Below, piece after piece: positions 4,631 to 63,428 of a stretch of DNA of 64,000 nt (positions are counted from its first letter, which is position 1; each line of letters opens with the position of its first letter). This DNA is from Escherichia coli (GTDB lineage: Bacteria > Pseudomonadota > Gammaproteobacteria > Enterobacterales > Enterobacteriaceae): the NCBI RefSeq assembly GCF_003790525.1, contig NZ_CP033635.1; one strand, written 5' to 3'. The notes beneath the pieces were generated by a model that saw nothing but the letters and a program-made list of their open reading frames with translations, ran no database searches and had not been told where the DNA came from. The position numbers were made by a program, and so were the translations under genes.

Positions 4631-4695
4631 TTATATTTGCTATAAAGAGTGTTGTGTATATTTTGCCATTTGGAGCAAAATTTTAAGGATAGAAT

Positions 4696-4712
4696 ATTAA
4701 CTTAACCTTAAG
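4696..4712 (-). promoter_or_regulatory. PmrA (BasR) box in the arnB promoter region
   Basis: Minus strand reads CTTAAG-GTTAA-GTTAAT, matching the PmrA direct-repeat consensus YTTAAK-N5-YTTAAK, about 66 bp upstream of the arnB start. Confidence 0.7.
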
Positions 4713-4904
4713 AAACTAATATTAGACGTAAATATTGAAATTTTTATATTTTTTCTTATTTAGGCTTTGCATTTGGCAAAATTTTGAGGCATTTTGCCGG
4801 CATCGCAGGATTTTTAATATTACACCAACTGCTAATTATCGCCAGAAATGTCGCTCAATTTCACGGTAATTGTCTGGTTGCGCTTGTCTATAGGTGGAGT
4901 TTAC

Positions 4905-5507
4905 GTGTTAGCTTTTTGCCGCTCTTCGTTGAAGTCAAAAAAATATTTCATCATTTTACTGGCGCTCGCTGCAATTGCCGGACTGGGTACTCATGCCGCC
5001 TGGAGTAGCAATGGTTTGCCACGTATCGACAATAAAACGCTGGCCAGACTGGCACAGCAGCACCCGGTTGTCGTTTTGTTTCGCCATGCTGAACGTTGCG
5101 ATCGTTCAACCAATCAATGCTTGTCAGATAAAACAGGTATTACGGTCAAAGGTACCCAGGATGCCCGTGAACTGGGCAACGCTTTTAGTGCTGATATCCC
5201 TGATTTCGATCTTTATTCCAGTAATACCGTCCGGACCATTCAGTCGGCGACCTGGTTTTCAGCGGGTAAAAAATTGACGGTAGATAAACGACTTCTTCAA
5301 TGCGGTAATGAGATTTATAGTGCAATTAAGGACTTACAAAGCAAAGCACCTGATAAAAATATCGTTATTTTTACCCATAATCATTGCCTGACATATATTG
5401 CTAAAGATAAGCGTGATGCGACATTTAAACCTGATTATCTGGATGGTTTAGTCATGCATGTGGAAAAAGGCAAAGTTTATCTGGATGGGGAATTCGTTAA
5501 CCACTAA
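4905..5507 (+). CDS. ais: Ais, aluminium-inducible putative LPS core heptose(II)-phosphate phosphatase
   Basis: ORF 4848-5507 contains the Ais sequence (…[19 protein letters not shown]…EFVNH). Start placed at GTG 4905 to give the 200-aa form; signal peptide and histidine-phosphatase RHAER motif present. Confidence 0.85.
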
Positions 5508-5519
5508 ATTTTCAATCTG

Positions 5520-5539
5520 ACAGCCAGTAATGGCTGTCA
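5520..5539. terminator. Hairpin between convergent ais and nudI; candidate bidirectional terminator
   Basis: gacagcca-gtaa-tggctgtc perfect 8-bp stem between the two convergent stops. Confidence 0.5.
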
Positions 5540-5545
5540 TCATTG

Positions 5546-5971
5546 TTACAGAAGACCTTTCAAACGTAACGTTTTTCGGGTGGCGACATTCAAATCATAG
5601 TGCACTAGATCTTCAGGTTTTACCCACGCGTAGTCCTGAAACTCTTCGTTTATTTTCACTTCTCGGTTGGCAGAAACGCAGTCAAAAATCAGGTAAATCA
5701 TATAAATCTCTTCCTTGCGACCATCTGCATACGTCTTGGTGCGAATATCATCGCTGAAGGTCCACGGCGTGATTTCTGTCAAAAGCAGCTGTTCTCCCAG
5801 TTCTTCGCGAATTTCGCGGCGTAGTGCCTCTTCAATTCGTTCGCCAGGCTCTACGCCGCCACCCGAAAGCGCCCATTGACCGGGGAAAACGCCGCGATCG
5901 TCGGCCATTTTACACAGCAAATAAGCACCATCATTTTGAATCAAAGGGCATACAATAGTCCGTTGTCGCAC
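5546..5971 (-). CDS. nudI: NudI, Nudix nucleoside triphosphatase
   Basis: 141-aa ORF with Nudix box ([24 protein letters not shown]). Confidence 0.9.
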
Positions 5972-6248
5972 AGGGGTATTCCTTATAAATAAAAAGAAAC
6001 CATGAGAATACGGTAACTCAGAAATATGTGAAAGTGACAGTAATCTCTTTTGCGATGATAACTGTACTTATTATTATTTTTGTGTGTATCGATAAAGTGT
6101 GTTTATTTTTGCGGCGTTTAATTATTTAAGAAGTATTTAGTTACAATAAGTGACTAGATCCCTTTTTTCGCTCATTGAATCCTCTGCGCCAGGCAGTACA
6201 ATCCCGCAGCTTTGGGAATTTTGATTAATTGCTTGTGGGAAAGGGGAT

Positions 6249-19571: not shown

Positions 19572-20648
19572 ATGAAATTGACGCTGAAAAACCTTAGCAT
19601 GGCGATCATGATGAGTGGAATGATCATGGGAAGCAGTGCAATGGCGGCGGACAGCAACGAAAAAATAGTCATCGCCCATCGCGGTGCCAGTGGATATTTG
19701 CCGGAGCATACGCTGCCAGCAAAAGCGATGGCGTATGCGCAGGGAGCGGATTATCTGGAACAGGATTTGGTGATGACCAAAGACGACCATCTGGTTGTTC
19801 TGCATGACCATTATCTCGATCGTGTTACTGATGTTGCCGATCGTTTCCCGGATCGGGCGCGCAAAGACGGTCGTTACTACGCGATAGATTTCACGCTCGA
19901 TGAAATTAAGTCACTGAAATTTACCGAAGGTTTCGATATTGAAAACGGTAAGAAAGTACAGACTTATCCGGGGCGTTTCCCAATGGGTAAGTCCGACTTC
20001 CGGGTGCACACCTTTGAAGAAGAGATTGAATTTGTTCAGGGGTTAAATCACTCTACCGGGAAAAATATTGGTATCTACCCGGAGATTAAAGCGCCGTGGT
20101 TCCATCATCAGGAAGGGAAGGATATTGCGGCAAAAACGCTGGAAGTGCTGAAGAAATATGGTTACACCGGTAAGGACGACAAAGTTTATTTGCAATGTTT
20201 TGATGCCGATGAACTGAAGCGTATTAAGAATGAGCTGGAACCTAAAATGGGCATGGACCTCAATCTGGTACAGCTGATTGCCTATACCGACTGGAACGAA
20301 ACTCAGCAGAAACAGCCGGACGGAAGCTGGGTTAATTACAACTACGACTGGATGTTTAAGCCGGGGGCCATGAAACAGGTGGCGGAATATGCTGATGGTA
20401 TTGGTCCGGATTACCATATGTTGATTGAGGAGACATCGCAGCCAGGTAATATCAAACTCACTGGCATGGTGCAAGATGCTCAGCAGAATAAACTGGTAGT
20501 GCATCCTTACACCGTGCGGTCAGATAAGCTGCCTGAATACACTACTGATGTGAATCAGTTATATGATGCTCTGTATAACAAAGCGGGTGTAAATGGGCTG
20601 TTTACTGATTTCCCTGATAAGGCAGTAAAATTCCTTAATAAAGAGTAA
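19572..20648 (+). CDS. glpQ: GlpQ, periplasmic glycerophosphodiester phosphodiesterase
   Basis: ORF 19515-20648 with start trimmed to MKLTLKNLSMAIMMSG (signal peptide), about 358 aa; the upstream extension overlaps the glpT 3-prime end. Confidence 0.9.
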   Translation: MKLTLKNLSMAIMMSGMIMGSSAMAADSNEKIVIAHRGASGYLPEHTLPAKAMAYAQGADYLEQDLVMTKDDHLVVLHDHYLDRVTDVADRFPDRARKDGRYYAIDFTLDEIKSLKFTEGFDIENGKKVQTYPGRFPMGKSDFRVHTFEEEIEFVQGLNHSTGKNIGIYPEIKAPWFHHQEGKDIAAKTLEVLKKYGYTGKDDKVYLQCFDADELKRIKNELEPKMGMDLNLVQLIAYTDWNETQQKQPDGSWVNYNYDWMFKPGAMKQVAEYADGIGPDYHMLIEETSQPGNIKLTGMVQDAQQNKLVVHPYTVRSDKLPEYTTDVNQLYDALYNKAGVNGLFTDFPDKAVKFLNKE

Positions 20649-20656
20649 TGCTACTG

Positions 20657-20682
20657 CAGGATGGCGTTCATGCGCCATCCTG
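20657..20682. terminator. Hairpin after glpQ, overlapping the 3-prime end of the convergent LysR gene
   Basis: caggatggcgc-ttcat-gcgccatcctg, 11-bp perfect stem. Confidence 0.55.
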
Positions 20683-21567
20683 TCTCATATCAAATTTTCC
20701 ACTCTCCACTAATTGTTCTGTGCACATTTGTAGTAAAAACAGTGGACTGCCTTCTACCGGCTTTTCTTTAGCCAGCAACGAAATCTGTCGATAGAAGGTT
20801 GGTTCGAGAGGAACGGAACACAATTCATCTGCAATGGTTTTCAGCGTTAACTCTGGTAATAAGGCGATGCCTAATCCCTGTCGAATAAAACTGATCGCTG
20901 TATCCGGGTGATTAAATTCATATTTTATCTGTGGGGTAATATTCTTTTCTTTAAATAGTGCCATAATGCTTAATTCATAGCGTCCTTTACTAATAATTAA
21001 TGGTTCACCCATTAACTCTTCCACTGTAATAGTGCTGTTTTTTGCCAGAGCATGGTTGGGCGGTAACACTACGGTGAATTTATCCTGATAAATGGGCACG
21101 GAGTACATTCCGCTCACCGGAAAATGAACAAAACCGGCATCAATGGATTCATTCTGAAGGGAATCAATAATCGCTGTGCTATTTTCCTCAAAAGGAATAA
21201 TTTTTATATTCGGATGATGAATTTCAAAGTAGCGAATCACAGCCGGTAAGATACAGGCACAGACGCTGGGGAAACAACCAAGTCTCAGCGTTCTTTGAGG
21301 GTTCTGCTTTTCCTGCTCGGCTATCTCTTTTACTGCGTTCACTTCCCGATTAATGGCGCGCAGATGATGCATAATGCGGTGACCTGCAGAGGTCAGTTGT
21401 ATAGCTTTACGGCGATCGCGTAACAGTATATTCACGCCAAGTTCTTGTTCGAGGGCAGCAATTGCCTGACTTACCGCCGACTGCGTCATGAACAATCGCT
21501 TGCTGGCTTCAGTAAAGCCACCGTAATCCAGCACGGCGAGTAAAGAATTTATTTGGGTAAGAGTCAT
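20668..21567 (-). CDS. yfaH: LysR-family transcriptional regulator (full-length counterpart of yfaH)
   Basis: 299-aa ORF with N-terminal LysR HTH (…FTEASKRLFMTQSAVSQAIAALEQELG…) and substrate-binding domain. Intact here; I recall yfaH as a truncated pseudogene in K-12. Confidence 0.8.
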   Translation of the reverse strand: MTLTQINSLLAVLDYGGFTEASKRLFMTQSAVSQAIAALEQELGVNILLRDRRKAIQLTSAGHRIMHHLRAINREVNAVKEIAEQEKQNPQRTLRLGCFPSVCACILPAVIRYFEIHHPNIKIIPFEENSTAIIDSLQNESIDAGFVHFPVSGMYSVPIYQDKFTVVLPPNHALAKNSTITVEELMGEPLIISKGRYELSIMALFKEKNITPQIKYEFNHPDTAISFIRQGLGIALLPELTLKTIADELCSVPLEPTFYRQISLLAKEKPVEGSPLFLLQMCTEQLVESGKFDMRQDGA

Positions 21568-21718
21568 TAGAGTTTGCTAATCAATAATATTAAAACGATT
21601 AATTTCTCTAATAGCATGCCGCCATTTATACTTCTGTTCTGCAAAGTACATCACAATTTGACGTAACCGCAGTAACGGGAGTGTTGTCTGCGTGCGTCAT
21701 CCTGACAGGCGGTAGGGT

Positions 21719-22909
21719 ATGAAAGAGAAGTTATGGACGAAGGATTTTTGGGCAATAACCATCATCAGTTTTATTATTTTCTTCGTCTTTTATGTTTTAC
21801 TAACATTGTTGCCAATTTATATCTCAGACCGCTTGCATGCCTCTCCTGATAAAGCAGGTTTGTTGGTGACTTTATTTTTAATTGCCGCCATTGTTATTCG
21901 CCCCTTTGCCGGGCAATGGGTGGGTAAATATTCGAATAAAACTATTCTGGGGCTCTCTTCTCTGGCCTTCTTGGTGGTCACTGCGCTGTATCCTTTTTGC
22001 CACTCAATTGAATCACTGCTTTTTATTCGGGTGCTTCATGGTATTACCTTCGGGGTTATCACTACGGTAAAAGGAACGATTTCCGCGCGGCTGATCCCGG
22101 CCTCCCGACGTGGGGAGGGCATCAGTTTTTTCTCTCTGGCAATGGGGCTGGCAATGGTGGTCGGGCCGTGGATTGGCCTGAATATGGCGCGCTGGGAGGC
22201 CTTTAATATGGCTTTCTGGTTATGCACCGGCGTGGCAGCGGTGGGGATTATTCTGTCGCTGATTATGACAGTGCCGCCGGTTATCAGCCATGCTGATGGT
22301 TCAACGCCGAAAATGGGCTTCGCCGCCATGTTCGATCGCGCGGCGTTGCCATTTGCGATGGTCACCTTTTTTATGACCTTTTCGTATGCCGGGGTTTCTG
22401 CTTTTCTGGCGCTTTATGCACGCGAACTTAACCTGATGTCGGCAGCCAGTAATTTCCTGCTTTGCTACGCTATCTTCCTGATGATCTGCCGTACCTTTAC
22501 CGGCAATGTCTGCGACAAAAAAGGACCGAAATATGTGGTTTACCCTTGCCTTGTGTTCTTTACGGTTGGACTGGTGGTTCTCGGCTACACCCAGGGAAGC
22601 ATAATGATGGTTGTTTCTGGCGCGTTGATTGGTATCGGGTATGGTTCCGTGACGCCAGTTTTTCAGACGCAGATTATCAGTTCAGTGGAACCGCATAAAA
22701 TCGGTGTCGCAAACTCCCTCTTCTTCAATGCGATGGATGCAGGCCTGGCGCTGGGAGCCTGTGTGATGGGGATGATGGTTGCACATACTGGCTACCGAAT
22801 GATTTATCTGCTGGGTGCACTATTAGTGGTAGTGGCTGGTGGAGTCTATGAGCTGCAAATGAAGGGCAAAAGCGGTGTCATGCTAGTAGCGGCAAAAGAA
22901 ATTCATTAA
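21719..22909 (+). CDS. MFS transporter (12-TM, efflux-type), divergent from the LysR regulator
   Basis: 396-aa ORF, hydrophobic throughout with MFS loop motifs; not an ORF I associate with K-12 at this position. Confidence 0.75.
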   Translation: MKEKLWTKDFWAITIISFIIFFVFYVLLTLLPIYISDRLHASPDKAGLLVTLFLIAAIVIRPFAGQWVGKYSNKTILGLSSLAFLVVTALYPFCHSIESLLFIRVLHGITFGVITTVKGTISARLIPASRRGEGISFFSLAMGLAMVVGPWIGLNMARWEAFNMAFWLCTGVAAVGIILSLIMTVPPVISHADGSTPKMGFAAMFDRAALPFAMVTFFMTFSYAGVSAFLALYARELNLMSAASNFLLCYAIFLMICRTFTGNVCDKKGPKYVVYPCLVFFTVGLVVLGYTQGSIMMVVSGALIGIGYGSVTPVFQTQIISSVEPHKIGVANSLFFNAMDAGLALGACVMGMMVAHTGYRMIYLLGALLVVVAGGVYELQMKGKSGVMLVAAKEIH

Positions 22910-25223: not shown

Positions 25224-27509
25224 TCAGATCTTACATGCGCCGCTTTCGCAGCCATCGTCCTGGATTGACGGCACCAGATCGTCTTGTGCGTCTTCTGCAC
25301 CGTCACGGGTGTTCTGATAATACAGCGTTTTAACCCCGAATTTGTAGGCGGTGAGCAGGTCTTTCAGCAGTTGCTGCATCGGCACTTTTCCTGACGGGAA
25401 GCGTGACGGATCGTAGTTGGTGTTAGCAGAGATCGACTGATCGATAAATTTCTGCATGATACCCACCAGTTGCAGATAGCCATCGTTACCCGGCATTTCC
25501 CACAGCAGTTCATAGGCGTCGTGCAGATGCTCGTAGTCCGGCACCACCTGGCGCAGAATACCGTCTTTCGACGCTTTGATGCTGACGTAACCACGCGGCG
25601 GTTCAATACCGTTAGTGGCGTTAGAGATCTGCGAAGAGGTCTCTGACGGCATCAGAGCAGAAAGCGTGGAGTTACGCAGGCCGTGCGTTTTGATTGACTC
25701 ACGCAGTGCTTCCCAGTCGTAATGCAGCGGCTCATTAGCGATGGCATCCAGATCTTTCTTATAGGTATCGATCGGCAGGATCCCTTTCGCGTAAGTGGTT
25801 TCGTTAAACCACGGGCACGCGCCTTGCTCTTTCGCCAGCTCATTAGACGCTTTCAGCAGGTAATACTGAATGGCTTCGAAGGTTTTATGCGTCAGGTTGT
25901 TGGCGCTGCCGTCGGAGTAGCGTTTACCGTGCTTCGCCAGGTAGTAAGCGAAGTTGATCACACCAATACCCAGCGTACGACGCCCCATCGCTCCACGTTT
26001 AGCGGCCGGGATCGGGTAATCCTGATAATCCAGCAGTGCGTCGAGTGCGCGAACCGCCAGAATTGCCAGCTCTTCCAGTTCATCCAGGCTGTTAATTGCG
26101 CCCAGGTTGAAAGCAGACAGCGTACACAGCGCGATTTCACCGTTCTCGTCGTTGACGTCGTTCAGTGGTTTGGTCGGTAGGGCGATTTCCAGGCACAGGT
26201 TAGACTGGCGCACTGGTGCAATAGCCGGATCAAACGGGCTGTGGGTGTTGCAGTGGTCTACGTTCTGAATATAGATACGACCGGTAGACGCACGTTCCTG
26301 CATCATCAGCGAGAACAGCTCAACGGCTTTCACACGCTGCTTGCGGATGCTGTCATCTTTCTCATATTTGGTGTACAGGCGTTCAAACTCTTCCTGATCG
26401 GCGAAGAACGCGTCGTACAGCCCCGGTACGTCGGACGGGCTGAACAGAGTGATATCTTCACCTTTCAGCAGACGGGTATACATCAGTTTGTTGATTTGTA
26501 CCCCGTAGTCCATATGACGCACGCGGTTGCCTTCCACCCCACGGTTGTTTTTCAACACCAGCAGGCTTTCAACTTCCAGATGCCACATCGGGTAGAACAG
26601 TGTTGCCGCACCGCCGCGCACACCGCCCTGAGAGCAGGATTTCACCGCTGTCTGGAAATGCTTATAGAACGGAATACAACCGGTATGGAACGCTTCGCCA
26701 CCGCGAATCGGGCTACCCAGCGCACGAATACGCCCGGCGTTGATGCCGATCCCGGCACGCTGGGAAACGTATTTAACAATCGCGCTGGAGGTGGCGTTGA
26801 TGGAATCCAGGCTGTCGCCGCACTCGATCAGTACGCAGGAGCTGAACTGACGAGTCGGGGTACGCACGCCGGACATGATTGGCGTCGGCAGCGAAATTTT
26901 AAATGTGGAAACCGCGTCGTAAAAACGCTTCACGTATTGCAGGCGCGTTTCACGCGGGTAGTTCGAGAACAGGCACGCGGCAACCAGAATATAAAGGAAC
27001 TGGGCGCTTTCGTAGATTTCGCCGGTCACACGGTTCTGCACCAGATATTTGCCTTCCAGCTGCTTAACGGCAGCATAAGAGAAGGTCATATCACGGTCGT
27101 GATCGATAAACGTGTCCATCTGCTTGAACTCTTCTTCCGTGTAGTCTTCCAGCAGATGATTATCGTATTTGCCCATCTCGACCATTTTCACCACGTGGTC
27201 GTACAGCGCAGGCGGCTCAAACTGGCCGTAGGCTTTTTTACGCAGGTGGAAGATCGCCAGGCGCGCGGCGAGATACTGATAATCCGGCGCATCACGGGAG
27301 ATCAGGTCTGCGGCAGCCTTGATAATGGTTTCGTGGATGTCAGAGGTCTTGATACCGTCATAAAACTGAATGTGGGAGCGCAGTTCGACCTGGGAAATCG
27401 AAACGTTATGCAGTCCTTCTGCCGCCCAATCCAGAACGCGATGGATTTTGTCGAGATTGATGCGCTCTGTGCTACCGTCGCGCTTTGTCACCAGCAGATT
27501 CTGATTCAT
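25224..27509 (-). CDS. nrdA: NrdA, class Ia ribonucleotide reductase alpha subunit
   Basis: 761-aa ORF, full-length match (MNQNLLVTKRDGSTERINLDKIHRVL…). Confidence 0.95.
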   Translation of the reverse strand: MNQNLLVTKRDGSTERINLDKIHRVLDWAAEGLHNVSISQVELRSHIQFYDGIKTSDIHETIIKAAADLISRDAPDYQYLAARLAIFHLRKKAYGQFEPPALYDHVVKMVEMGKYDNHLLEDYTEEEFKQMDTFIDHDRDMTFSYAAVKQLEGKYLVQNRVTGEIYESAQFLYILVAACLFSNYPRETRLQYVKRFYDAVSTFKISLPTPIMSGVRTPTRQFSSCVLIECGDSLDSINATSSAIVKYVSQRAGIGINAGRIRALGSPIRGGEAFHTGCIPFYKHFQTAVKSCSQGGVRGGAATLFYPMWHLEVESLLVLKNNRGVEGNRVRHMDYGVQINKLMYTRLLKGEDITLFSPSDVPGLYDAFFADQEEFERLYTKYEKDDSIRKQRVKAVELFSLMMQERASTGRIYIQNVDHCNTHSPFDPAIAPVRQSNLCLEIALPTKPLNDVNDENGEIALCTLSAFNLGAINSLDELEELAILAVRALDALLDYQDYPIPAAKRGAMGRRTLGIGVINFAYYLAKHGKRYSDGSANNLTHKTFEAIQYYLLKASNELAKEQGACPWFNETTYAKGILPIDTYKKDLDAIANEPLHYDWEALRESIKTHGLRNSTLSALMPSETSSQISNATNGIEPPRGYVSIKASKDGILRQVVPDYEHLHDAYELLWEMPGNDGYLQLVGIMQKFIDQSISANTNYDPSRFPSGKVPMQQLLKDLLTAYKFGVKTLYYQNTRDGAEDAQDDLVPSIQDDGCESGACKI

Positions 27510-27586
27510 GTATGTCGTACCTGTTTTTGGAATTCTTTCCGCAATAGTTTCATGCAGACTACCTGTAGTGAGGGAAGCTGCTTAGA

Positions 27587-27634
27587 ACACTATATATAGG
27601 GGGTATGTTTGGGATTCACTGCAAGATAGTGTGA
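27587..27634 (-). promoter_or_regulatory. nrdAB promoter NrdR boxes (two)
   Basis: Two NrdR-box-like palindromes on the nrdA strand (cactatatatag core at 27587-27602; tcacactatcttgcagtga at 27617-27634), about 80-125 bp upstream of the nrdA start. Confidence 0.6.
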
Positions 27635-27662
27635 AAATGGCCCTCTTGCAAGTGCATAACTT

Positions 27663-27671
27663 TGTGGATAA
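27663..27671 (-). promoter_or_regulatory. DnaA box upstream of nrdA
   Basis: Plus strand tgtggataa is the reverse complement of the DnaA-box consensus TTATCCACA. Confidence 0.6.
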
Positions 27672-28204
27672 CTCAGGAAGGAAAAAGTGGCTTTCGCGCA
27701 CCTTAGGTCAGACAAGGTGTCCGGGAAAGTCAATGGGAAGAGAAAAATTTGTTAAAAATAACTGTTCGGCGATTTCTTGAACGGAAGAATAGGTTAGATA
27801 AATTGATATAGATGGTTTATTAATCTTTTTGCTAATGATTGCAAAAATTGATCTAAGCACGAGTCATCACATAATCTGATGTATCAGTTATGGTCAATAT
27901 ATAAGCGAATGTAAGCGATTGTTGATGTCGAAATGGTTGTTTTCTCTTCGGTTGTTGTTAAATGCGAAGCCATTTTGTTAATTTACCTTATATTATAAGA
28001 AAATTATTCATTACTTTAATTCAGTTTAAACATAACTGATATCCCTTAAGGTGATTAACTTGAATTATGACGCACTGATATTATTCATGAAATAATAACA
28101 AAATAGCCATTGCACCGGGTTGAACAATTTACAAAAGAAAAATAACCCATATCGTATAATGCGATTAAATATGCCGTCTTATAGAAAATGATGGTCAGAT
28201 TAAT

Positions 28205-31200
28205 ATGCGGATTATTTTTCTACGCAAGGAGTATTTATCTTTACTCCCGTCAATGATTGCATCTCTTTTCTCTGTTAACAGTGTCGCGGAGGTTTTGGAT
28301 TCATGCCAGGGATATGATATCAAAGCGAGTTGTCAGGCCAGCAGGCAAAGCCTTTCAGGCATTACGCAGGACTGGAGCATCGCCGATGGGCAATGGGTGA
28401 TTTTTTCGGGTATGGCCAATAATGCCAGCGGTGGTGCCGTATTTTTGCAGCAAAGTGCTGAATTTACGATATCACCACAAAATGAAACAGGGATGACCCT
28501 GTTTGCTAATAACTCGATTAGTGGCGAATATAATAATGGCGGAGCTATCTTTGCTAAAGAAAACTCAACGATAAATCTTGCGAATGTTATTTTCGACAGT
28601 AACGTTGCAGGAGGCTATGGCGGAGCAATCTATTCTGCGGGAACAAACGATGCCGGTGATATGGATTTAAATATCACTAATGCAATATTTGCGAATAATA
28701 TCGCCAATGATGGTAAAGGTGGCGCTATTTATTCTATCAATAATGATATTTATTTAAGTGATGTCATTTTTGATAATAATCAGGCATATACATCAACCAG
28801 CTATAGTGATGGGGACGGCGGTGCCATTGATGTTACGGATAATAGTACGGATAACACACATCTTTCAGGAAAAACGATAATTAATAATACCTCCTTTACC
28901 AATAACTATGCAGAAGGTTATGGCGGAGCAATTTATACCAGCAGCACCACATCCCCGTATCTTATTGATATTTCTGTTGATGATAATTATGACCAAAACA
29001 ATGGTGTGATGATTGATGAAAATAACAGCGCCTCGGGATATGACCATTCGGCGACGGCAGCGGCGGGGGGCTTTATGTATATCGGTCATAGTGTGGCTGA
29101 ATTTAACATTGCCGCCGATAAAACGCTGGTAATAGGCAATACCAGCAACGATGGCGCGATTGATTCTCTTGCCGGAACGGGAGTCATCGTGAAAGAGGGA
29201 GCGGGAGAGTTAGTCCTCAATGCCGACAATAATGCGTTTACCGGCGAGATGAGTATCCAGAATGGCGAGGTGACGCTGGGGCGCAGCGATGAGTTAATGA
29301 ATGTCGGCGACACGCACTGTCAGAGCGATCCGCAGGATTGCTTTGGTCTGATGGTCGGCAGCACTGTTCATTCTGAGTATCAGGCAGAACTGAATGTTGG
29401 CAATACACAACAAACGTTTGTGCACTCATTAACCGGTTTTGCTAATGGCATTTTGAATATCGACGCAGGCGGCAATGTTACCGTAAACCAGGGCGGTTTT
29501 TCCGGCTCGATTCAGGGTGAAGGACAGTTGACGGTAGCGCAAGATGGCAGCTATCTCCTGACAGGGGAGCAGTCGATGGCATTAACCGGCGATATTGTGG
29601 TGGAAGATAACGCCGTATTGTCGCTAGCGGGGAATCAGGCCGATTTACGGGCAATGCAGAGCGATCCGCAATCGATCGTGCTAAATGGCGGAGTATTGGA
29701 TCTCTCTGATTTCACCACTTGGGATGGCGATAGCTCATACAATGACGGTCTGCAAATCAGCGGCAGTGGGGGGACAGTGATTGGCAGTAATGATGTCGTT
29801 GATATCAGCAGTGGCGATGATTTACATATTGGCGGCAGTGATGCCAGCCAGAATGGCGTTTATGTCGTCATTAATGCGGGGGATCAGCGCGTAACGCTGG
29901 CGAATAACAACGGTTATCTCGGTAATACGCAAATCGCCTCCGGTACGCTTGAAGTCAGCGATAATTCGCAATTGGGGGACACAAGTTACAACCGTTCAGT
30001 GATCTTCACAGATCCCCAACAACACAGTGAAATGGATGTGACGACTGATGTTGACACTCGCTCGGCTACAACAGGTCAGGGCAGGAATATTGAAATGCGC
30101 GCTGATGGCGAAATACACGTTGAGGATGGCGTAGATACGCAATGGGGCGGGTTGATGGCGGATAGTACCGGGCAACAACTGGATAGCGTAAGCACGTTGA
30201 CTAAAAGTGGCGGCGGGACGCTGGAGTTGACCGCCAGCGGCACTGCGACGTCTGCGGTACGTGTGGAGGACGGAACGCTAAAAGGTGAAGCGGAGAATAT
30301 TATTCCTTATGTTTCTTCACTGTGGGTGGGGGAAGACGGTGTTTTTGAAACCGGGAAAAATCAGGATATTCGTTCAATCGATGCCACCTCTGGCGGCGAT
30401 ATCGACATAACCGATGGTACTGTGTTGCGATTGACGCAGCAGGATACGAACCAGGCGCTGGATGCCTCGCTGTTTAGCGGCGACGGTACGTTGGTGAATG
30501 CCACCGATGGTGTGACGCTGACAGGCGAGCTTAATACCAACCTTGAAACTGACAGCCTGACTTATCTTTCAGACGTGACGGTCAATGGTGATCTAACTAA
30601 TACTTCCGGTGCTGTCAGTCTGCAAAATGGCGTTGCTGGCGACACGCTCACGGTAAACGGTGATTACACCGGTGGCGGTACGTTGTTTCTCGACAGCGAA
30701 TTAAACGGCGATGACTCGGCAAGCGACCAACTGGTGTTGAACGGTAATACTGCTGGCAACACGACCGTGGTAATTAATCCCATTACGGGTATTGGTGAGC
30801 CGACATCTACGGGCATTAAAGTGGTTGATTTCGCAGCCGATCCAACGCAATTTCAAAACAATGCGCAGTTCAGTCTGGCGGGCAGCGGCTACGTCAATAT
30901 GGGAGCGTATGACTACACGCTGGTGGAAGATAACAACGACTGGTATCTGCGATCGCAAGAAGTAACGCCACCATCGCCACCTGATCCAGACCCGACTCCA
31001 GATCCTGATCCTACGCCGGATCCTGATCCAACACCCGACCCGGCTCCAGCCCCTACGCCTGCCTACCAGCCGGTGCTGAATGCCAAAGTTGGTGGCTATC
31101 TCAATAACCTACGTGCGGCAAATCAGGCATTTGTGATGGAGCGACGCGATCACGCTGGTGGCGATGGTCAGACGCTGAATTTACGTGTTATCGGCGGAGA

Positions 31201-32107: not shown

Positions 32108-32830
32108 TCACTTATTCTGCGTATGCAGCATATAGTTCACATCAACGCCGGGGCCGAGCTTAAAGGAATTAGTTATAGGGTTGTAATGCAGCCCGGTCAT
32201 ATGCCGTTCTTTAAGACTGGTCTGATCCACCCAGCCCAGCAATTCTGCCGGTTTAATAAACTTCTTCACATCATGTGTACCTTTAGGCACCATGCGCAAA
32301 ATATATTCAGCACCAACCACCGCCATCAGCCATGACTTGCCGTTGCGGTTGAGCGTCGAGAAAAAGACATCGCCGCCCGGTTTCACCAGTTGCGCACAGG
32401 CTCTGACCACTGACTGAGGATCGGGGACGTGCTCCAGCATCTCCATGCAGGTCACCACATCATACTGCCCGGCATGTTTTGCCGCGTGCTCTTCCACGGT
32501 TTCCTGCACGTAATCCACCTGAATGCCGCTTTCCAGTGCGTGCAGTTTTGCCACCTGCAATGGCTCAAAGCCCATATCCAGACCGGTCACCGTCGCACCT
32601 TCGCGCGCCATACTCTCGGCCAGAATGCCGCCGCCACAACCGACATCGAGCACCTTTTTGCCAAATAAACCGCCAGCACGCTCGGCAATATAGCCCAGAC
32701 GCAGCGGGTTAATACGGTGCAGCGGTTTGAACTCACCTTCCAGATCCCACCAGCGGGAGGCGACGGCTTCAAATTTAGCGATCTCTTCGTGGTCTACGTT
32801 ATTGTTTTTAAGGAGATTTTCAGTGTTCAT
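32108..32830 (-). CDS. ubiG: UbiG, bifunctional ubiquinone-biosynthesis O-methyltransferase
   Basis: 240-aa ORF with SAM-binding motif ([13 protein letters not shown]). Confidence 0.95.
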
Positions 32831-32907: not shown

Positions 32908-33606
32908 TTACTGTGTAGATAACGAGAGAATTTTTCGTGCGCGCTCGGTAAATCCACTACTTACGTGATGAGTAATAAAATTACAAACACCTTCAACGTT
33001 ATTATTTTTTAGCATATCTAAAATAGTCGCATGGCCACGATTTGAATTGGTGATATATTCCGTAGTGAAATCCAGTCGATAACGGATAGCAAGTAAACGT
33101 GCGGATATCAATTGGTGTGCCTGAGAGATGTATTTATTATCAGCGTATTTAACAAACACATAATGAAAATCATGATCCAGTTTAAGATAAGCCTGAGTAT
33201 CGCGCTCGGCATTAATTTTTGCTGATTTTGATAGTATACTATTTAGTTCAATGATGACATTGTTTGCATTCTTTTCCATTGCTTCACTAATTGCACCCTG
33301 CTCCAGAATTACTCGCATTTTTATGAGGTCATTAATATCTTTATCTGTTACGGAAAAAACGAATGTTCCGCTGCGTGGAATGATATTGATCAGATTTTCA
33401 TTGTGACTAAGTAAAATAAAAGCTTCACGAATAGGTGTTTTACTTACCGCCAGAATATTCGAAAGTTCATTTTCACTTATCGGTTGCCCAAGACTGAGAT
33501 CGCCATGAATTATCATATCCCTGATTTTTTCTTTGATGACCTGTGTTACGGATTTTGGTATCTCAATTGATATGTGACTTAAGTCACGTTTCGCTTTATC
33601 TCTCAT
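32908..33606 (-). CDS. GntR-family (FadR/FCD subfamily) transcriptional regulator; accessory-island gene
   Basis: 232-aa ORF with N-terminal GntR-type winged HTH (…LSENELSNILAVSKTPIREAF…) and C-terminal all-helical FCD-like domain; codons are AT-rich. Confidence 0.8.
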   Translation of the reverse strand: MRDKAKRDLSHISIEIPKSVTQVIKEKIRDMIIHGDLSLGQPISENELSNILAVSKTPIREAFILLSHNENLINIIPRSGTFVFSVTDKDINDLIKMRVILEQGAISEAMEKNANNVIIELNSILSKSAKINAERDTQAYLKLDHDFHYVFVKYADNKYISQAHQLISARLLAIRYRLDFTTEYITNSNRGHATILDMLKNNNVEGVCNFITHHVSSGFTERARKILSLSTQ

Positions 33607-33670
33607 TCCTTTGCCCCTTATTAAGCTGCTGGTCCATTATATGTAATCATTTTATCAATGAAGGTATCTA

Positions 33671-33843: not shown

Positions 33844-35172
33844 ATGAGCAGTCCTCAGAAAGATTTGTATGAAGCCATTTCTATTGTGAAAAGGAAGATT
33901 ATTCCGTTAGCATTTATTCTGTATTTTTTTAACTATATGGATCGTGTTAACATCGGATTTGCCGCTTTACGCATGAATGAATCCCTTGGTATTACACCAG
34001 AGGATTTTGCTAATATATCTTCAATATTTTTTGTGTCCTATTTGATTTTTCAAATTCCGAGCAGTATTGGATTGCAAAAGTTAGGTGCAAGAAAATGGAT
34101 TAGCGCCATTATTGTTGGTTGGGGAACAGTAACAACGTTAATTTTCTTTGCCAAAGACACCCAGCATATATTGCTCGCTCGGGTCTTTTTGGGAATATTT
34201 GAAGCGGGGTTTTTCCCTGGCATGGTTTACTACCTGGCATGTTGGTTCCCGGCGCGTGAACGTGGAAAAGTGAATAGCTTTTTTATGTTATCAATCGCAG
34301 TTGCATCTGTGCTGGCGGCACCAATGTCTGGTTGGATTATTGAACATATGAATACCGGTAACTATGAAGGATGGCGCTGGCTTTTTGCTATTGAAGGCAT
34401 TCCTACGGTGTTATTGGGGGCGCTGACCTTTTATTTACTGCCAGATCGTCCGGAAAAAGCCCGCTGGCTTACACCATCGCAAGTCACCGCATTGGTCGAT
34501 AAACTTAATTCTGATAACGAAAAAGCCGCAGCATTAAATAAAAATACAAATGCATCTTTTCTGTCAATCATTAAAAATCCAGTATTACTACAACTCTCAT
34601 TTGCTTATATGTTTATTCAGGCAGCGGCGTTGGCGGCAAATTACTGGTTACCGGGGTTGGTTAAAGGATTTTCATCGGATTTCACAGATACCGATGTCGG
34701 TTTGATTATGAGTATTCCGTTTATTTTCGCGATGTTCAGTATGCCATTATGGGGATGGCATTCCGATAAAAAGAATGAAAGGAAATGGCATGCCGCACTA
34801 CCGATGTTGGTTGCAGGTTGCGGTTTTTTAATGATCGCACTTGTACCTTCGATGACGCTGCGCATGATGGGATTAACATTATACGGTGTAGGCATTCTCA
34901 GTTATTACGGTCCGTACTGGGCTTTACCCTCAGCTTTACTTTCACCATCAGGCCTGGCAATCAGTATTGCGTTTATTAACTCTTGTTCAAGTTTGGGTGG
35001 TTTTCTGATCAATAAATCACTTGGCTATGTTTCTACACATTATGGAGCCACGGGGATATTTATTGTTGAGGCGATTCTTTGCTTTATCGCCGTAGCTATT
35101 TTGTTATCAATGAAAATTGATAATAAAAAAGATAACGCCCAGAAAGACAATGTTATTTCACATGCTAAATAA
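33844..35172 (+). CDS. MFS transporter of the anion:cation symporter (ACS) family, sugar-acid type (DgoT/RhmT/GudP-like)
   Basis: 442-aa ORF with motifs shared with the RhmT in this window (…DRVNIGFAA…, [11 protein letters not shown]…, WFPxRER). Confidence 0.8.
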   Translation: MSSPQKDLYEAISIVKRKIIPLAFILYFFNYMDRVNIGFAALRMNESLGITPEDFANISSIFFVSYLIFQIPSSIGLQKLGARKWISAIIVGWGTVTTLIFFAKDTQHILLARVFLGIFEAGFFPGMVYYLACWFPARERGKVNSFFMLSIAVASVLAAPMSGWIIEHMNTGNYEGWRWLFAIEGIPTVLLGALTFYLLPDRPEKARWLTPSQVTALVDKLNSDNEKAAALNKNTNASFLSIIKNPVLLQLSFAYMFIQAAALAANYWLPGLVKGFSSDFTDTDVGLIMSIPFIFAMFSMPLWGWHSDKKNERKWHAALPMLVAGCGFLMIALVPSMTLRMMGLTLYGVGILSYYGPYWALPSALLSPSGLAISIAFINSCSSLGGFLINKSLGYVSTHYGATGIFIVEAILCFIAVAILLSMKIDNKKDNAQKDNVISHAK

Positions 35173-35184
35173 ATGAGGTTATTT

Positions 35185-36387
35185 ATGAAGATTACATCTG
35201 TAGAAATTTTTGACTGCGAACTCAAAAAAAGAGATCAAACTATGGCCTCTTATAATCCAGTACTTATTCGGGTTAATACCGATGCTGGAATAAGTGGTGT
35301 TGGCGAAGTAGGATTAGCCTATGGTGCAGGTGCAAAATCTGGTGTTGGTATTATCAGAGATTTAGCCCCTCTCATCATTGGTGAAGATCCGTTGAACATT
35401 GAGAAGATTTGGGAATTCCTCTTCAGGAAAACATTTTGGGGAATGGGCGGTGGTAATGTTTTTTACGCAGGTATGAGCGCTATTGATATTGCCTTATGGG
35501 ATATTAAAGGTAAATATTTAAACGTGCCGGTTTATCAACTACTGGGGGGAAAGACTAACGATAAATTGAGAACTTACGCCAGTCAGTTACAATTTGGTTG
35601 GGGCGAAAAAAGGCAAATATTAGTAACGCCTGAAGAGTATGCAGAGGCAGCGCGTGCCGCTATTGCAGAAGGTTATAATGCGATAAAAGTTGATCCGCTT
35701 GAAATCGATCTGCATGGCGGCGATTGTGTCTTTCAGAACAAAAATAGAAATTACTCTGGCTTATTACTGGCCGAACAATTAAAAATGGGCGAGGCAAGAA
35801 TTGCCGCTATGCGTGAAGCAATGGGCGACGATGCTGATATTATTGTAGAGATTCATTCTCTTCTAGGAACAAATTCAGCGATCCAGTTTGCCAAAGCAAT
35901 AGAGAAATATCGTATTTTTCTCTATGAGGAGCCAATTCATCCATTAAATTCGGATAATATGCAGAAAGTTGCCCGTTCAACATCGATTCCGATAGCAACA
36001 GGTGAGCGTTCTTATACTCGCTGGGGATATCGTGATTTACTGGAAAAACAATCAATTGCGGTAGCTCAACCTGATTTGTGTCTTTGTGGTGGCATTACAG
36101 AGGGAAAGAAAATTTGTGATTATGCCAATATATATGACACAACCGTTCAGGTACATGTTTGTGGCGGGCCTGTTTCAACAGTAGCGGCGCTGCATATGGA
36201 AACTGCAATACCTAACTTTATTATTCATGAACATCATACCAATGCGATGAAAGCATGTATTCGGGAACTTTGTACTTACGATTATCAACCCGAGAATGGC
36301 TATTATGTCGCGCCAGAGTTGCCTGGGCTTGGTCAGGAATTAAACGATGAAATCGTACAACAATATCTTGCCTATGTGATCAAATAA
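35185..36387 (+). CDS. Enolase-superfamily sugar-acid dehydratase, GalD / mandelate-racemase subgroup (D-galactonate-dehydratase-like)
   Basis: ORF 35173-36387. Start preferred at ATG 35185 (MKITSVEIFD…) with a GAGG Shine-Dalgarno at 35175-35178. Has the KxK motif (WDIKGK), the metal-ligand region and the QPDLxxxGGITE motif typical of DgoD-like dehydratases. Confidence 0.8.
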   Translation: MKITSVEIFDCELKKRDQTMASYNPVLIRVNTDAGISGVGEVGLAYGAGAKSGVGIIRDLAPLIIGEDPLNIEKIWEFLFRKTFWGMGGGNVFYAGMSAIDIALWDIKGKYLNVPVYQLLGGKTNDKLRTYASQLQFGWGEKRQILVTPEEYAEAARAAIAEGYNAIKVDPLEIDLHGGDCVFQNKNRNYSGLLLAEQLKMGEARIAAMREAMGDDADIIVEIHSLLGTNSAIQFAKAIEKYRIFLYEEPIHPLNSDNMQKVARSTSIPIATGERSYTRWGYRDLLEKQSIAVAQPDLCLCGGITEGKKICDYANIYDTTVQVHVCGGPVSTVAALHMETAIPNFIIHEHHTNAMKACIRELCTYDYQPENGYYVAPELPGLGQELNDEIVQQYLAYVIK

Positions 36388-36403
36388 CGGCGATTTATAT
36401 ACT

Positions 36404-36660
36404 CTAAATAATTCGAGTTGCAGGAAGGCGACAAGCGAGTGACAAATTCGTCAGGAACGAATTTGCCCAGCCGCAGGCTGGCCTTCGGTGAGAGACATGG
36501 ATGTCTCTCATTAATCCCCAGGAGCTTACATAAGTAAGTGACTGGGGTGAGCGACAAATCCGCATGGAGCGGATTTGAACGCTGCTTGCAGCGGCCCCGT
36601 AAGGGGTGAGGTCCATGGATGGGCCGAATAACCCGCAGACGCAGCACATGCAACTTGAAG
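36404..36660. repeat. ERIC (IRU) repeat, long variant, upstream of gyrA
   Basis: Contains the ERIC core ccccaggagcttacataagtaagtgactggggtgagcg (exact ERIC2 primer sequence at 36532-36553) flanked by imperfect inverted-repeat arms. Confidence 0.75.
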
Positions 36661-36886
36661 TATGACGAGTATAGCCATTATTTCTGGTGTTTATTGAGGC
36701 ACAGGAAGCGTGTTGCGGTCTTTGTTCCTTTGTCGTTCACCGCCAGCGCGATGTGTGCTGGCGGTGGGGTAAAACGCAGTAGATCTACAGCGCCCGGAAG
36801 CCTGCATTACGTTTACCCGTCCGCAAGCGATTGTGTTATAATCTCCGACCTTTGAATCCGGGATACAGTAGAGGGATAGCGGTTAG

Positions 36887-39514
36887 ATGAGCGACCTTGC
36901 GAGAGAAATTACACCGGTCAACATTGAGGAAGAGCTGAAGAGCTCCTATCTGGATTATGCGATGTCGGTCATTGTTGGCCGTGCGCTGCCGGATGTCCGA
37001 GATGGCCTGAAGCCGGTACACCGTCGCGTACTTTACGCCATGAACGTACTAGGCAATGACTGGAACAAAGCCTATAAAAAATCTGCCCGTGTCGTTGGTG
37101 ACGTAATCGGTAAATACCATCCCCATGGTGACTTGGCGGTTTATAACACGATCGTCCGTATGGCGCAGCCATTCTCGCTGCGTTACATGCTGGTAGACGG
37201 TCAGGGTAACTTCGGTTCCATCGACGGCGACTCTGCGGCGGCAATGCGTTATACGGAAATCCGTCTGGCGAAAATTGCCCATGAACTGATGGCCGATCTC
37301 GAAAAAGAGACGGTCGATTTCGTTGATAACTATGACGGCACGGAAAAAATTCCGGACGTCATGCCAACCAAAATTCCTAACCTGCTGGTGAACGGTTCTT
37401 CCGGTATCGCCGTAGGTATGGCAACCAACATCCCGCCGCACAACCTGACGGAAGTCATCAACGGTTGTCTGGCGTATATCGATGATGAAGACATCAGCAT
37501 TGAAGGGCTGATGGAACACATCCCGGGGCCGGACTTCCCGACGGCGGCAATCATTAACGGTCGTCGCGGTATTGAAGAAGCTTACCGTACCGGTCGTGGC
37601 AAGGTGTATATCCGCGCCCGTGCGGAAGTGGAAGTTGACGCCAAAACCGGGCGTGAAACCATTATCGTCCACGAAATTCCGTATCAGGTGAACAAAGCTC
37701 GCCTGATCGAAAAAATTGCGGAACTGGTAAAAGAAAAACGCGTGGAAGGTATCAGCGCGCTGCGTGACGAGTCTGACAAAGACGGTATGCGCATCGTGAT
37801 TGAAGTGAAACGCGATGCGGTCGGTGAAGTGGTGCTCAACAACCTCTATTCCCAGACCCAGTTGCAGGTTTCTTTCGGTATTAACATGGTGGCATTGCAC
37901 CATGGTCAGCCGAAGATCATGAACCTGAAAGACATCATCGCGGCGTTTGTTCGTCACCGCCGTGAAGTGGTGACCCGTCGTACTATTTTCGAACTGCGTA
38001 AAGCGCGCGATCGTGCTCATATCCTTGAAGCATTAGCCGTCGCGCTGGCAAACATTGACCCGATCATCGAACTGATCCGTCATGCGCCGACGCCTGCAGA
38101 AGCGAAAACGGCGCTGGTTGCTAATCCGTGGCAGCTGGGCAACGTTGCCGCGATGCTGGAACGAGCCGGCGACGATGCTGCGCGTCCGGAATGGCTGGAG
38201 CCAGAGTTCGGCGTGCGTGACGGTCTGTACTACCTGACCGAACAGCAAGCTCAGGCGATTCTGGATCTGCGTTTGCAGAAACTGACCGGCCTTGAGCACG
38301 AAAAACTGCTCGACGAATACAAAGAGCTGCTGGATCAGATCGCGGAACTGTTGCGTATTCTTGGTAGCGCCGATCGTCTGATGGAAGTGATCCGCGAAGA
38401 GCTGGAGCTGGTTCGTGAACAGTTCGGTGACAAACGTCGTACTGAAATCACCGCCAACAGCGCAGACATCAACCTGGAAGATCTGATCACCCAGGAAGAT
38501 GTGGTCGTGACGCTCTCTCACCAGGGCTACGTTAAATATCAGCCGCTTTCTGAATACGAAGCGCAGCGTCGTGGCGGGAAAGGTAAATCTGCCGCACGTA
38601 TTAAAGAAGAAGACTTTATCGACCGACTGCTGGTGGCGAATACCCACGACCATATTCTGTGCTTCTCCAGCCGTGGTCGCGTCTATTCGATGAAGGTTTA
38701 CCAGTTGCCAGAAGCTACTCGTGGCGCGCGCGGTCGTCCGATCGTCAACCTGCTGCCGCTGGAGCAGGACGAACGTATCACCGCGATCCTGCCGGTGACC
38801 GAGTTTGAAGAAGGCGTGAAAGTCTTCATGGCCACCGCTAACGGGACCGTGAAGAAAACCGTCCTCACCGAATTCAACCGTCTGCGTACCGCCGGTAAAG
38901 TGGCGATCAAACTGGTTGATGGCGATGAGCTGATCGGCGTTGACCTGACCAGCGGCGAAGATGAAGTAATGCTGTTCTCCGCCGAAGGTAAAGTGGTGCG
39001 CTTTAAAGAGTCTTCTGTCCGTGCGATGGGCTGCAACACCACCGGTGTTCGCGGTATTCGTTTAGGCGAAGGCGATAAAGTCGTCTCTCTGATCGTACCT
39101 CGTGGTGATGGCGCAATCCTCACCGCAACGCAGAACGGTTATGGTAAACGTACCGCAGTGGCGGAATACCCAACCAAGTCGCGTGCGACGAAAGGGGTTA
39201 TCTCCATCAAGGTTACCGAACGTAACGGTTTAGTGGTTGGCGCGGTGCAGGTAGATGACTGCGACCAGATCATGATGATCACCGATGCCGGTACGCTGGT
39301 ACGTACTCGCGTTTCAGAAATCAGCATCGTGGGCCGTAACACCCAGGGCGTGATCCTCATCCGTACTGCGGAAGATGAAAACGTAGTGGGTCTGCAACGT
39401 GTTGCTGAACCGGTTGACGAGGAAGATCTGGATACCATCGACGGCAGTGCCGCGGAAGGGGACGATGAAATCGCTCCGGAAGTGGACGTTGACGACGAGC
39501 CAGAAGAAGAATAA
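36887..39514 (+). CDS. gyrA: GyrA, DNA gyrase subunit A; QRDR carries Leu83 and Asn87
   Basis: 875-aa ORF, full-length GyrA. Codon 83 (37133-37135) is TTG (Leu) and codon 87 (37145-37147) is AAC (Asn), within [11 protein letters not shown]. Confidence 0.97.
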
Positions 39515-39662: not shown

Positions 39663-46509
<6,847 letters not shown>

Positions 46510-59280: not shown

Positions 59281-59365
59281 GACGGATAAGGCGTTTACGC
59301 CGCATCTGGCATTCAGTGCAAATGCCAGATAAGACACTAACGCGTCTTATCTGGCCTACAGGTGA
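59281..59365. repeat. REP elements between convergent rcsC and rcsB
   Basis: ggacggataaggcgtttacgccgcatctggca … gccagataagacac…gcgtcttatctggcctac REP motifs. Confidence 0.75.
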
Positions 59366-63016: not shown

Positions 63017-63109
63017 AAAAAAAACCGGATGCGAGGCATCCGGTTGAAATAGGGGTAAACAGACATTCAGAAATGAATGACGGTAATAAATAAAGTTAAT
63101 GATGATAGC
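63017..63109 (-). ncRNA. micF: MicF antisense sRNA (regulator of ompF)
   Basis: Minus strand reads gctatcatcattaactttatttattaccgtcattcatttctgaatgtctgtttacccctatttcaaccggatgcctcgcatccggtttttttt, which is the MicF sequence including its terminator hairpin and U-tract; divergent from ompC. Confidence 0.9.
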
Positions 63110-63428
63110 GGGAGATATTCTAGTTGCGAGTGAAGGTTTTGTTTTGACATTCAGTGCTGTCAAATACTTAAGAATAAGTTATTGATTTTAACCTTGAATT
63201 ATTATTGCTTGATGTTAGGTGCTTATTTCGCCATTCCGCAATAATCTTAAAAAGTTCCCTTGCATTTACATTTTGAAACATCTATAGCGATAAATGAAAC
63301 ATCTTAAAAGTTTTAGTATCATATTCGTGTTGGATTATTCTGCATTTTTGGGGAGAATGGACCTGCCGACTGATTAATGAGGGTTAATCAGTATGCAGTG
63401 GCATAAAAAAGCAAATAAAGGCATATAA

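Follow-up and report, generated by a model that had tools for sequence, protein, structure and literature searches.

A long-type ERIC element with two internal modules after the last gene of a three-gene island upstream of gyrA in Escherichia coli

Our comparison of alleles and genomes shows that the enlarged repeat located upstream of gyrA in the window (the whole 64,000-nucleotide stretch of E. coli DNA that we analysed) is a long-type ERIC (IRU) miniature inverted-repeat element, composed of a 127-bp imperfect palindrome and two internal modules of ~75 nt. It is a typical instance of an already known kind, the long ERIC with two internal modules. The two inserts are paralogous copies of one conserved four-hairpin cassette, placed in the same orientation. 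Taking all the evidence together, we consider the following combined reading probable: the element is a two-module long ERIC; a small sugar-acid gene island arrived first, the ERIC second and the modules last, by gene conversion; the element likely belongs to the 3' UTR of the island operon; and its position, upstream of the inferred start of gyrA transcription, does not coincide with the boundary of the island. What is documented here, namely an allelic series at one site, the homology of left, right and third-site modules and the covariation of their structure across nine genera, amounts to useful details rather than surprises.

The element and its two inserts

ERIC or IRU elements have been known since 1990-91. 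Their 32-nt core, CCCCAGGAGCTTACATAAGTAAGTGACTGGGG, occurs only once in the window, as an exact match (32/32) at positions 36516-36547; it was never found in 100 shuffles, and no match is expected by chance. The whole element, on the plus strand, runs from TATACTC (36398) to GAGTATA (36673), the terminal inverted repeats of ERIC, which gives a length of 276 bp. It is preceded by TA at 36396-97 and starts 10 nt 3' of the stop codon of a dehydratase gene. These limits agree with the alignments to two other alleles of the same site, a short one and an empty one, the latter lacking exactly the 36398-36673 block. The original prediction of an ERIC of ~250 bp, as compared with the usual ~126 bp, was therefore sound, with an exact core and 276 bp instead of 127 bp. 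The positions that it gave, 36404-36660, lie inside the element, the true limits of which are slightly wider.

Inserts aside, the three ERIC segments are 97-100% identical to ordinary ERIC copies in K-12 and other strains. ERIC matches occur in 5425 of 5426 E. coli genomes, with a median of 5 places per genome (range 1-11). The insertion site is extragenic and corresponds to a TA: the empty allele reads GATTTA followed by AGGCC, and the filled one GATTTA, then TATACTC...GAGTATA, then GCC. This junction is not perfectly clean, with AG absent and SNPs close by.

The internal organization of the element emerges from the alignment, from the dehydratase stop codon to the gyrA ATG, with strain WP2-W18-ESBL-08, which carries the same island and spacer and a short ERIC allele. 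The two sequences differ by two gaps of 71 and 78 bp and by a single base at 36633, adjoining the right insert, which is C in the window and A in the short allele; all other aligned bases are identical. The lengths add up exactly (127 + 71 + 78 = 276). Where an enlarged variant or an internal insertion had been suspected, the alignment thus reveals the latter and, in fact, two insertions. All parts lie on the plus strand. A 44-bp ERIC left arm (36398-36441), identical in the short allele and alignable with other ERIC copies, is followed by the 71-bp left insert at site B (36442-36512), a four-hairpin module of L type that corresponds to the first gap. Next comes the ERIC central core (36513-36554), which includes the exact 32-nt core and is defined by the core match and the short-allele alignment. 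The 78-bp right insert at site C (36555-36632), a four-hairpin module of R type that corresponds to the second gap, separates it from the 41-bp right arm (36633-36673), delimited by the short-allele alignment and other ERIC copies.

The left insert follows GAGTG in the left arm and the right one follows GAGCG(A) in the right arm, and both begin with ACAAAT. When aligned with each other they score 48 in direct orientation and 13 as reverse complements, which led us to reject the idea of mirror-symmetric copies within a palindrome. Both inserts fold as short hairpins placed one after another. The differences between the two in the first hairpin are compensatory (AAATTCGT/ACGAATTT versus AAATCCGC/GCGGATTT), and a T at 36612 in the right insert gives a G-U pair in hairpin 4.

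ERIC inserts of ~70 bp, located at specific internal sites and folding well with the ERIC stem intact, were reportedly described in 1997 by Sharp and by Cromie and colleagues. The inserts of our element likewise measure ~70 bp, occupy specific sites and fold without disrupting the ERIC stem. We see no difference in kind from the long ERICs with internal insertions (Sharp 1997; Cromie et al. 1997), which have the same insert size of ~70 bp, specific sites and well-folded inserts. Judging by their titles, Sharp and Leach 1996, Cromie et al. 1997 and Sharp 1997 put insertions within ERIC on record in 1996-97; Wilson and Sharp 2006 is cited in PMC2229807. With the ERIC/IRU elements as first described (Sharples and Lloyd 1990; Hulton, Higgins and Sharp 1991), our element shares the core, the arms, the terminal repeats, the extragenic location and the TA ends, but it measures 276 bp instead of 127 bp and contains two internal modules. 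The Correia/NEMIS elements of Neisseria, ~104-157 bp long (PMC2229807, PMC3184786), are also non-autonomous inverted repeats differing by an internal block. By contrast, they belong to another sequence family, whereas the blocks described here are repeated, paralogous hairpin cassettes found at up to three sites.

The module in other loci and genera

Both inserts have close relatives elsewhere in E. coli. The left one is identical (71/71) in the ERIC at panC-rpnC and also 100% identical at yeiS-preT, rpiA-argP and ybhM, and the right one is near-identical in the ERICs at yeiS-preT and yehK-yehL. They occur together at rpiA-argP (E2348/69), yeiS-preT (strain A25), ybhM and mnmH. Altogether, six other E. 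coli loci and nine genera have inserts at these positions of the ERIC. A third insertion site exists in the ERIC left arm, after TTGCAGG; ERICs of ~350 bp with three modules are found at ybhM and mnmH in some E. coli as well as in Intestinirhabdus, and combinations of A (third-site) and R modules in E. albertii, E. whittamii and Klebsiella. A scan for the ERIC core followed by ACAAA, with one genome per species, retrieved 47 loci from Escherichia, Klebsiella, Citrobacter, Kosakonia, Serratia, Pectobacterium, Dickeya, Leminorella, Intestinirhabdus and a soil MAG. The site-C inserts of these loci are mostly 73-80 nt long and nearly all self-fold into the same four hairpins. In some genera, as exemplified by Kosakonia arachidis, and in the soil MAG, long forms are the common type of ERIC. 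With respect to neighbour genes in tandem contexts, the ERIC is in sense orientation in 13 cases and antisense in 5, numbers that are too low to carry weight and that rely on naive and noisy ORF calls.

The homology of the three module types is supported by a covariance model (R1) built from 44 distinct right-site modules of nine genera. R modules match it with 72-107 bits, A modules with 45-62 bits and L modules with 30-42 bits, always over the full length and on the same strand within each element. In the window, cmsearch with this model gave 94 bits for the right insert (E=1.6e-22, 36554-36638) and 42.5 bits for the left one (E=8e-9, 36442-36520). Over 83 distinct modules, 95.4% of the cells are paired and 19 of the 25 pairs have changed on both sides; the alignment used for these counts had been adjusted to the model, a circumstance that works in favour of the structure. 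The covariation score for the same 83 modules is 0.421, to be compared with 0.146 for shuffles and 0.02-0.07 for slid partners. RNAalifold applied to a plain MAFFT alignment independently recovered hairpins 1, 3 and 4 with compensatory changes. This recovery, together with the covariation, argues that the module hairpins are under selection, and the covariation across nine genera provides firmer ground for the 1997 claim that the inserts fold well. G-U pairs outnumber A-C mismatches in the module stems (74 versus 24), although the numbers become 30 versus 24 (p = 0.5) when the doubtful pair 47-63 is left aside, so that this comparison does not tell RNA from DNA hairpins.

At gathering threshold, Rfam yields no match in the element. 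A scan by E-value returned a single hit, below threshold: the right module aligns over the full model of RF02902 (AaHKsRNA22) with 27.1 bits (E = 0.003, 36546-36666), the gathering threshold being 39.8; none of 18 other module-bearing loci reaches that threshold for RF02902. The consensus of this family has the same layout as the right module, with a ACAAAACGC hairpin, GAAC, a second hairpin, a GCCCC...GGGGC hairpin, GA, a fourth hairpin and GAGTA. RF02902 is an sRNA of Aggregatibacter actinomycetemcomitans, a species of a different bacterial family from E. coli, and was defined by RNA-seq (PMC5909427). In that study, specific primers could not be designed for 35 sRNAs because of near-identical sequences at other loci (PMC5909427). 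By the Rfam criterion, the right module is not a member of RF02902, and the resemblance is one of architecture only.

Kosakonia arachidis and the soil MAG also contain a different repeat of ~230 bp, with terminal inverted repeats TAAGAGCCTATCCCA...TGGGATAGGCTCTTA, which harbours hairpins 1-3 of the ERIC module. The module is therefore not confined to ERIC. In a more speculative extension, which we deem unlikely, the ~75-nt four-hairpin module might have a function of its own as a structured cassette, for instance a protein-binding or RNase-directing RNA domain, common to ERIC (at three sites), to this second MITE family of Kosakonia and possibly to an expressed Aggregatibacter sRNA, and still spreading into resident ERICs of present-day E. 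coli. A phenotypic difference between long and short ERIC alleles, including those found upstream of gyrA, would then be expected.

Acquisition of the ERIC and of its modules

Of 5426 complete E. coli genomes, 141 carry the island next to the element, among them those of strains SMS-3-5 and IAI39, and all 141 were matched by a query that spans the insertion point as it stands in strain M160133. The site is empty in M160133, holds a short ERIC in IAI39 and AR_0013, an ERIC with the right module only in 2014C-3075, and the long form in SMS-3-5 and strain 165. We scored the state of the spacer on an evenly spaced sample of 60 of these 141 records and found four states. The site is empty in 18/60 (~30%), on several haplotypes that are 95-100% identical to the empty-site query. 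A 127-bp ERIC occurs in 29/60 (~48%), and the haplotypes that bear it fall into two or more classes (97.5% and 97.1% identity to that query). An ERIC with the right module only was seen in 1/60 (2 genomes in all), and an ERIC with both modules in 12/60, belonging to a single haplotype class (31 genomes in all). One spacer haplotype of the short alleles is common to the long ones, and the flanks of ERIC-bearing alleles are nearly identical. Another mobile sequence was noticed in this set, an IS1 element in the dehydratase gene of the island-bearing NZ_OZ546943.1.

Since the haplotypes with an empty site are the most diverse and those with a long allele amount to only one, the parsimonious order would be island, then ERIC, then modules. 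The three-gene island would have been established between ubiG and gyrA with a spacer devoid of ERIC; a 127-bp ERIC would have inserted later at a TA just 3' of the dehydratase stop codon; and, in one haplotype, this resident ERIC would have gained the right and the left modules. That ~30% of island-bearing genomes are empty at the site implies that the ERIC arrived after the island, and an island older than the ERIC cannot have been acquired through it. The presence of four states at one orthologous site constitutes a natural allelic series of modest value for repeat biology, suited to testing the effects of ERIC and its inserts on neighbour mRNA as well as the spread of inserts. In practical terms, size polymorphism of this kind changes the bands obtained by ERIC-PCR and may lead gene-calling programs astray.

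How the modules entered can be approached from their distribution. Module type is tied to site, with R at site C (n=58), L at site B (n=22) and A at site A (n=16), the one exception to this pairing being found in Serratia oryzae. At yeiS-preT, gain of the left module was accompanied by two flanking base changes towards the ERIC consensus, from GAGAG-AGTCC to GAGTG[L]AATCC, as co-conversion predicts. Finally, the L module is identical at five loci. Because of this type-site fidelity, the flank changes at yeiS-preT and the identity of the L module, gene conversion provides the best fit, and the modules were most likely gained in this way, from other long ERIC copies into the resident ERIC. The tract at yeiS-preT would end at most ~5 nt to the left of the insert, which is short for RecA-type recombination, and the homology available beside the inserts is short too. 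No exact donor was found for the right module of the window, which combines variants seen at rpiA and yehK. Within the same genome (strain 165), the two nearest candidate loci are devoid of module: the yeiS-preT ERIC is short, and yehK-yehL has no ERIC core and carries an IS903B (42158-43126 of the segment of strain 165) in the place taken, in other strains, by a right-module ERIC.

An alternative to gene conversion is that the inserts are themselves mobile mini-elements which enter GAGYG^A, a target present once per ERIC arm in direct orientation, in a site-specific manner and with fixed orientation. Several observations fit this idea, including that both inserts follow GAG(T/C)G, begin with ACAAAT and are direct rather than mirrored, that strains differ in the presence of inserts at several loci of E. 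coli (gyrA, yeiS-preT, panC), that no flanking ERIC marker has changed at the gyrA locus and that a partial module exists inside a different MITE family. However, each site has its own module type across genera, whereas free transposition should mix types; flanking bases were co-converted at yeiS-preT; the right insert is not clean, with one adjoining base different; and target duplication is absent. We know of no enzyme that would carry out such insertions. We consequently regard mobile inserts as an improbable explanation, though a less improbable one than those discussed below, and favour gene conversion.

The direction of change might also be the opposite, the long form being ancestral here and the short and right-module-only alleles resulting from precise deletion of modules by hairpin or palindrome slippage. 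Palindrome-induced deletion in ERIC has been proposed, judging from the title of Sharp and Leach 1996, and the abundance of long forms in, for example, Kosakonia arachidis and the soil MAG is compatible with a long ancestor. The haplotypes tell otherwise: short alleles sit on at least two spacer haplotypes (97.5%, 97.1%), one of them common to the long alleles, while all long alleles of the 60-record sample (12/12) fall in one haplotype class and the empty sites occupy the most diverse ones. In addition, two precise deletions restoring a consensus ERIC are less parsimonious than gain. We find this scenario quite unlikely and retain the gain of modules by a resident short ERIC.

The island operon and the gyrA promoter

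The plus strand of the window corresponds to the minus strand of K-12. Between ubiG and gyrA it carries a block of three genes, encoding a GntR-family regulator (32908-33650, minus strand), an MFS transporter (33844-35172, plus strand; ORF list and PGAP) and a dehydratase of the mandelate racemase/muconate lactonizing family, which is the last gene of the island (35185-36387, plus strand; ORF list and PGAP annotation of the 100%-identical strain 165). As PGAP annotates the GntR gene as a frameshifted pseudogene in both strains examined, the transporter-dehydratase operon may be unregulated. On the ubiG side, divergence from K-12 begins within the first ten ubiG codons (32800-32830, minus strand). 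On the gyrA side, the ERIC is followed by an island-specific spacer (36674-36832), without match in island-free genomes and kept in the four alleles; with a 601-bp query, the matches of island-free genomes covered the ERIC part only, and 36680-36830 had none. Similarity to K-12 resumes only at TGTGTTATAAT, around 36833, from where 2 nt differ up to the gyrA ATG. Given that divergence extends from within the ubiG codons to the extended -10 of gyrA, the so-called island has the look of a segment that was replaced, not of one that was cleanly inserted. Two minor features of the region can be mentioned. The N-terminus of UbiG differs between the window and K-12, the K-12 form being MNAEKSPVNHNVDHEE. 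Between the ERIC and the gyrA promoter lies a GC-rich hairpin (36738-36766), the stem of which measures 10 bp (CACCGCCAGC...GCTGGCGGTG); neither strand has a T-run there, and the hairpin is kept in empty, short and long alleles.

The ERIC has the same orientation as the MFS-dehydratase operon, and we detected no Rho-independent terminator (GC-rich stem followed by a T-run) on either strand in 36200-37000, the basal stem of the ERIC being AT-rich. This orientation and the lack of a terminator ahead make it most likely that the ERIC would be transcribed as the 3' UTR of the operon. In silico, the short form folds into one long stem (-53.7 kcal/mol, z = -7.3) and the long form reaches -129.3 kcal/mol (z = -10.5); the minimum-energy fold of the latter keeps the ERIC outer stem and core hairpin, the module hairpins forming side branches. 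The transcribed ERIC would thus adopt a very stable branched stem to which the modules add side hairpins, leaving the ERIC stem undisturbed, and any effect would bear on 3'-end stability or processing of the island mRNA. On these predictions, the role of the element, if any, is likely that of a very stable 3'-UTR structure for the island operon. It may equally be neutral at this locus, where the empty site and the short and long ERICs are all maintained, each with the same gyrA promoter. In Yersinia, ERICs are reported to be co-transcribed with neighbour genes and to change upstream mRNA stability depending on their orientation (De Gregorio et al. 2005, as cited in PMC2229807). Our element resembles these ERICs, which modulate mRNA decay (De Gregorio et al. 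2005, as cited in PMC2229807 and PMC3184786), in that it lies directly 3' of a gene, has the sense orientation and is probably co-transcribed; of the Yersinia model, it is position and orientation that agree.

The gyrA coding sequence (36887-39514, plus strand) starts only 214 bp after the end of the ERIC. The only TATAAT in the spacer, at 36837-36842, is conserved in K-12 and has a TG at 36834-35, forming an extended -10, TGtTATAAT (36834-36842, plus strand), identical to that of K-12. This TATAAT lies 164 bp downstream of the ERIC end, and the title of Straney et al. 1994 names TATAAT as the -10 sequence with which gyrA is transcribed. From its position we infer that gyrA transcription would start at ~36847-36849, ~170 bp downstream of the ERIC. 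An automatic promoter and terminator scan of 36200-37000 returned no sites; it missed the gyrA promoter because of a poor -35 and the reliance of this promoter on its extended -10.

It could be envisaged that the element acts on gyrA at the level of DNA or transcription, either as a barrier or insulator against read-through or as a cruciform that alters supercoiling at the gyrA promoter. The island operon does point towards gyrA, with no intrinsic terminator predicted between them, and the gyrA promoter is reported in PMC6170449 to respond to transcription-coupled supercoiling. By contrast, the direct orientation of the inserts makes the long form a poorer DNA palindrome than the short one, and viable lineages carry the empty, the short or the long allele without any difference in the promoter. 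We therefore give little credence to such an action on gyrA; a cruciform or supercoiling effect was judged unlikely for the very reason that the inserts break the DNA palindrome. If the element has a role at all, a 3'-UTR structure of the island operon remains our preferred reading.

The original prediction placed the element exactly at the junction between island and gyrA and proposed that it marks a recombination boundary or influences the structure and stability of the gyrA 5' UTR. It also named what would speak against it, namely a gyrA transcript starting downstream of the element and the same element in island-free strains. Its location near the right end of a low-GC island (0.34-0.42 at 33-36 kb, against 0.52 in gyrA) and at only 214 bp from the gyrA ATG speaks for these proposals. 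Nonetheless, the island-specific DNA continues for ~160 bp beyond the ERIC, K-12 similarity resuming only at ~36833, and hence the ERIC is not the junction. A boundary role also conflicts with the ~30% of island-bearing genomes without ERIC at this site, which make the ERIC later than the island. Likewise, membership of the gyrA leader does not suit the conserved -10 located 164 bp downstream of the element, which would set the transcription start downstream as well. As for island-free strains, K-12 has no ERIC between ubiG and gyrA, in line with what the prediction expected. Overall, we judge a boundary or 5'-UTR function to be very improbable. The element thus has little import for gyrA, being neither the boundary of the island nor, as far as sequence can indicate, part of the gyrA leader.

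The least plausible idea, that of a small protein encoded by the minus strand of the element, can be dismissed: two such ORFs exist (36404-36649, 81 aa, and 36372-36653, 93 aa) and one locus tag number is skipped here in strain 165, but PGAP annotates no gene at this place, the module lengths in homologues (73, 74, 75, 76, 78, 79 and 80 nt) do not keep a reading frame and the substitutions in stems are compensatory instead of codon-patterned, the variation in length and the compensatory pattern being our grounds for rejecting both ORFs as coding.

The skipped tag, AWB10_RS08520, falls between the dehydratase gene and gyrA (36388-36886 of the window) in the long-allele strain 165, and there is no skip in the short-allele genome; it may represent a withdrawn ORF call inside the long ERIC. 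Elsewhere in the window, Rfam matches at gathering level correspond to naRNA4 (REP-derived, plus strand, 59280-59356) and MicF (minus strand, 63017-63110), as expected for the ompC region. Low-GC patches (0.38-0.45) at 4001-6000, 20001-22000 and 27001-29000 may be other accessory segments.
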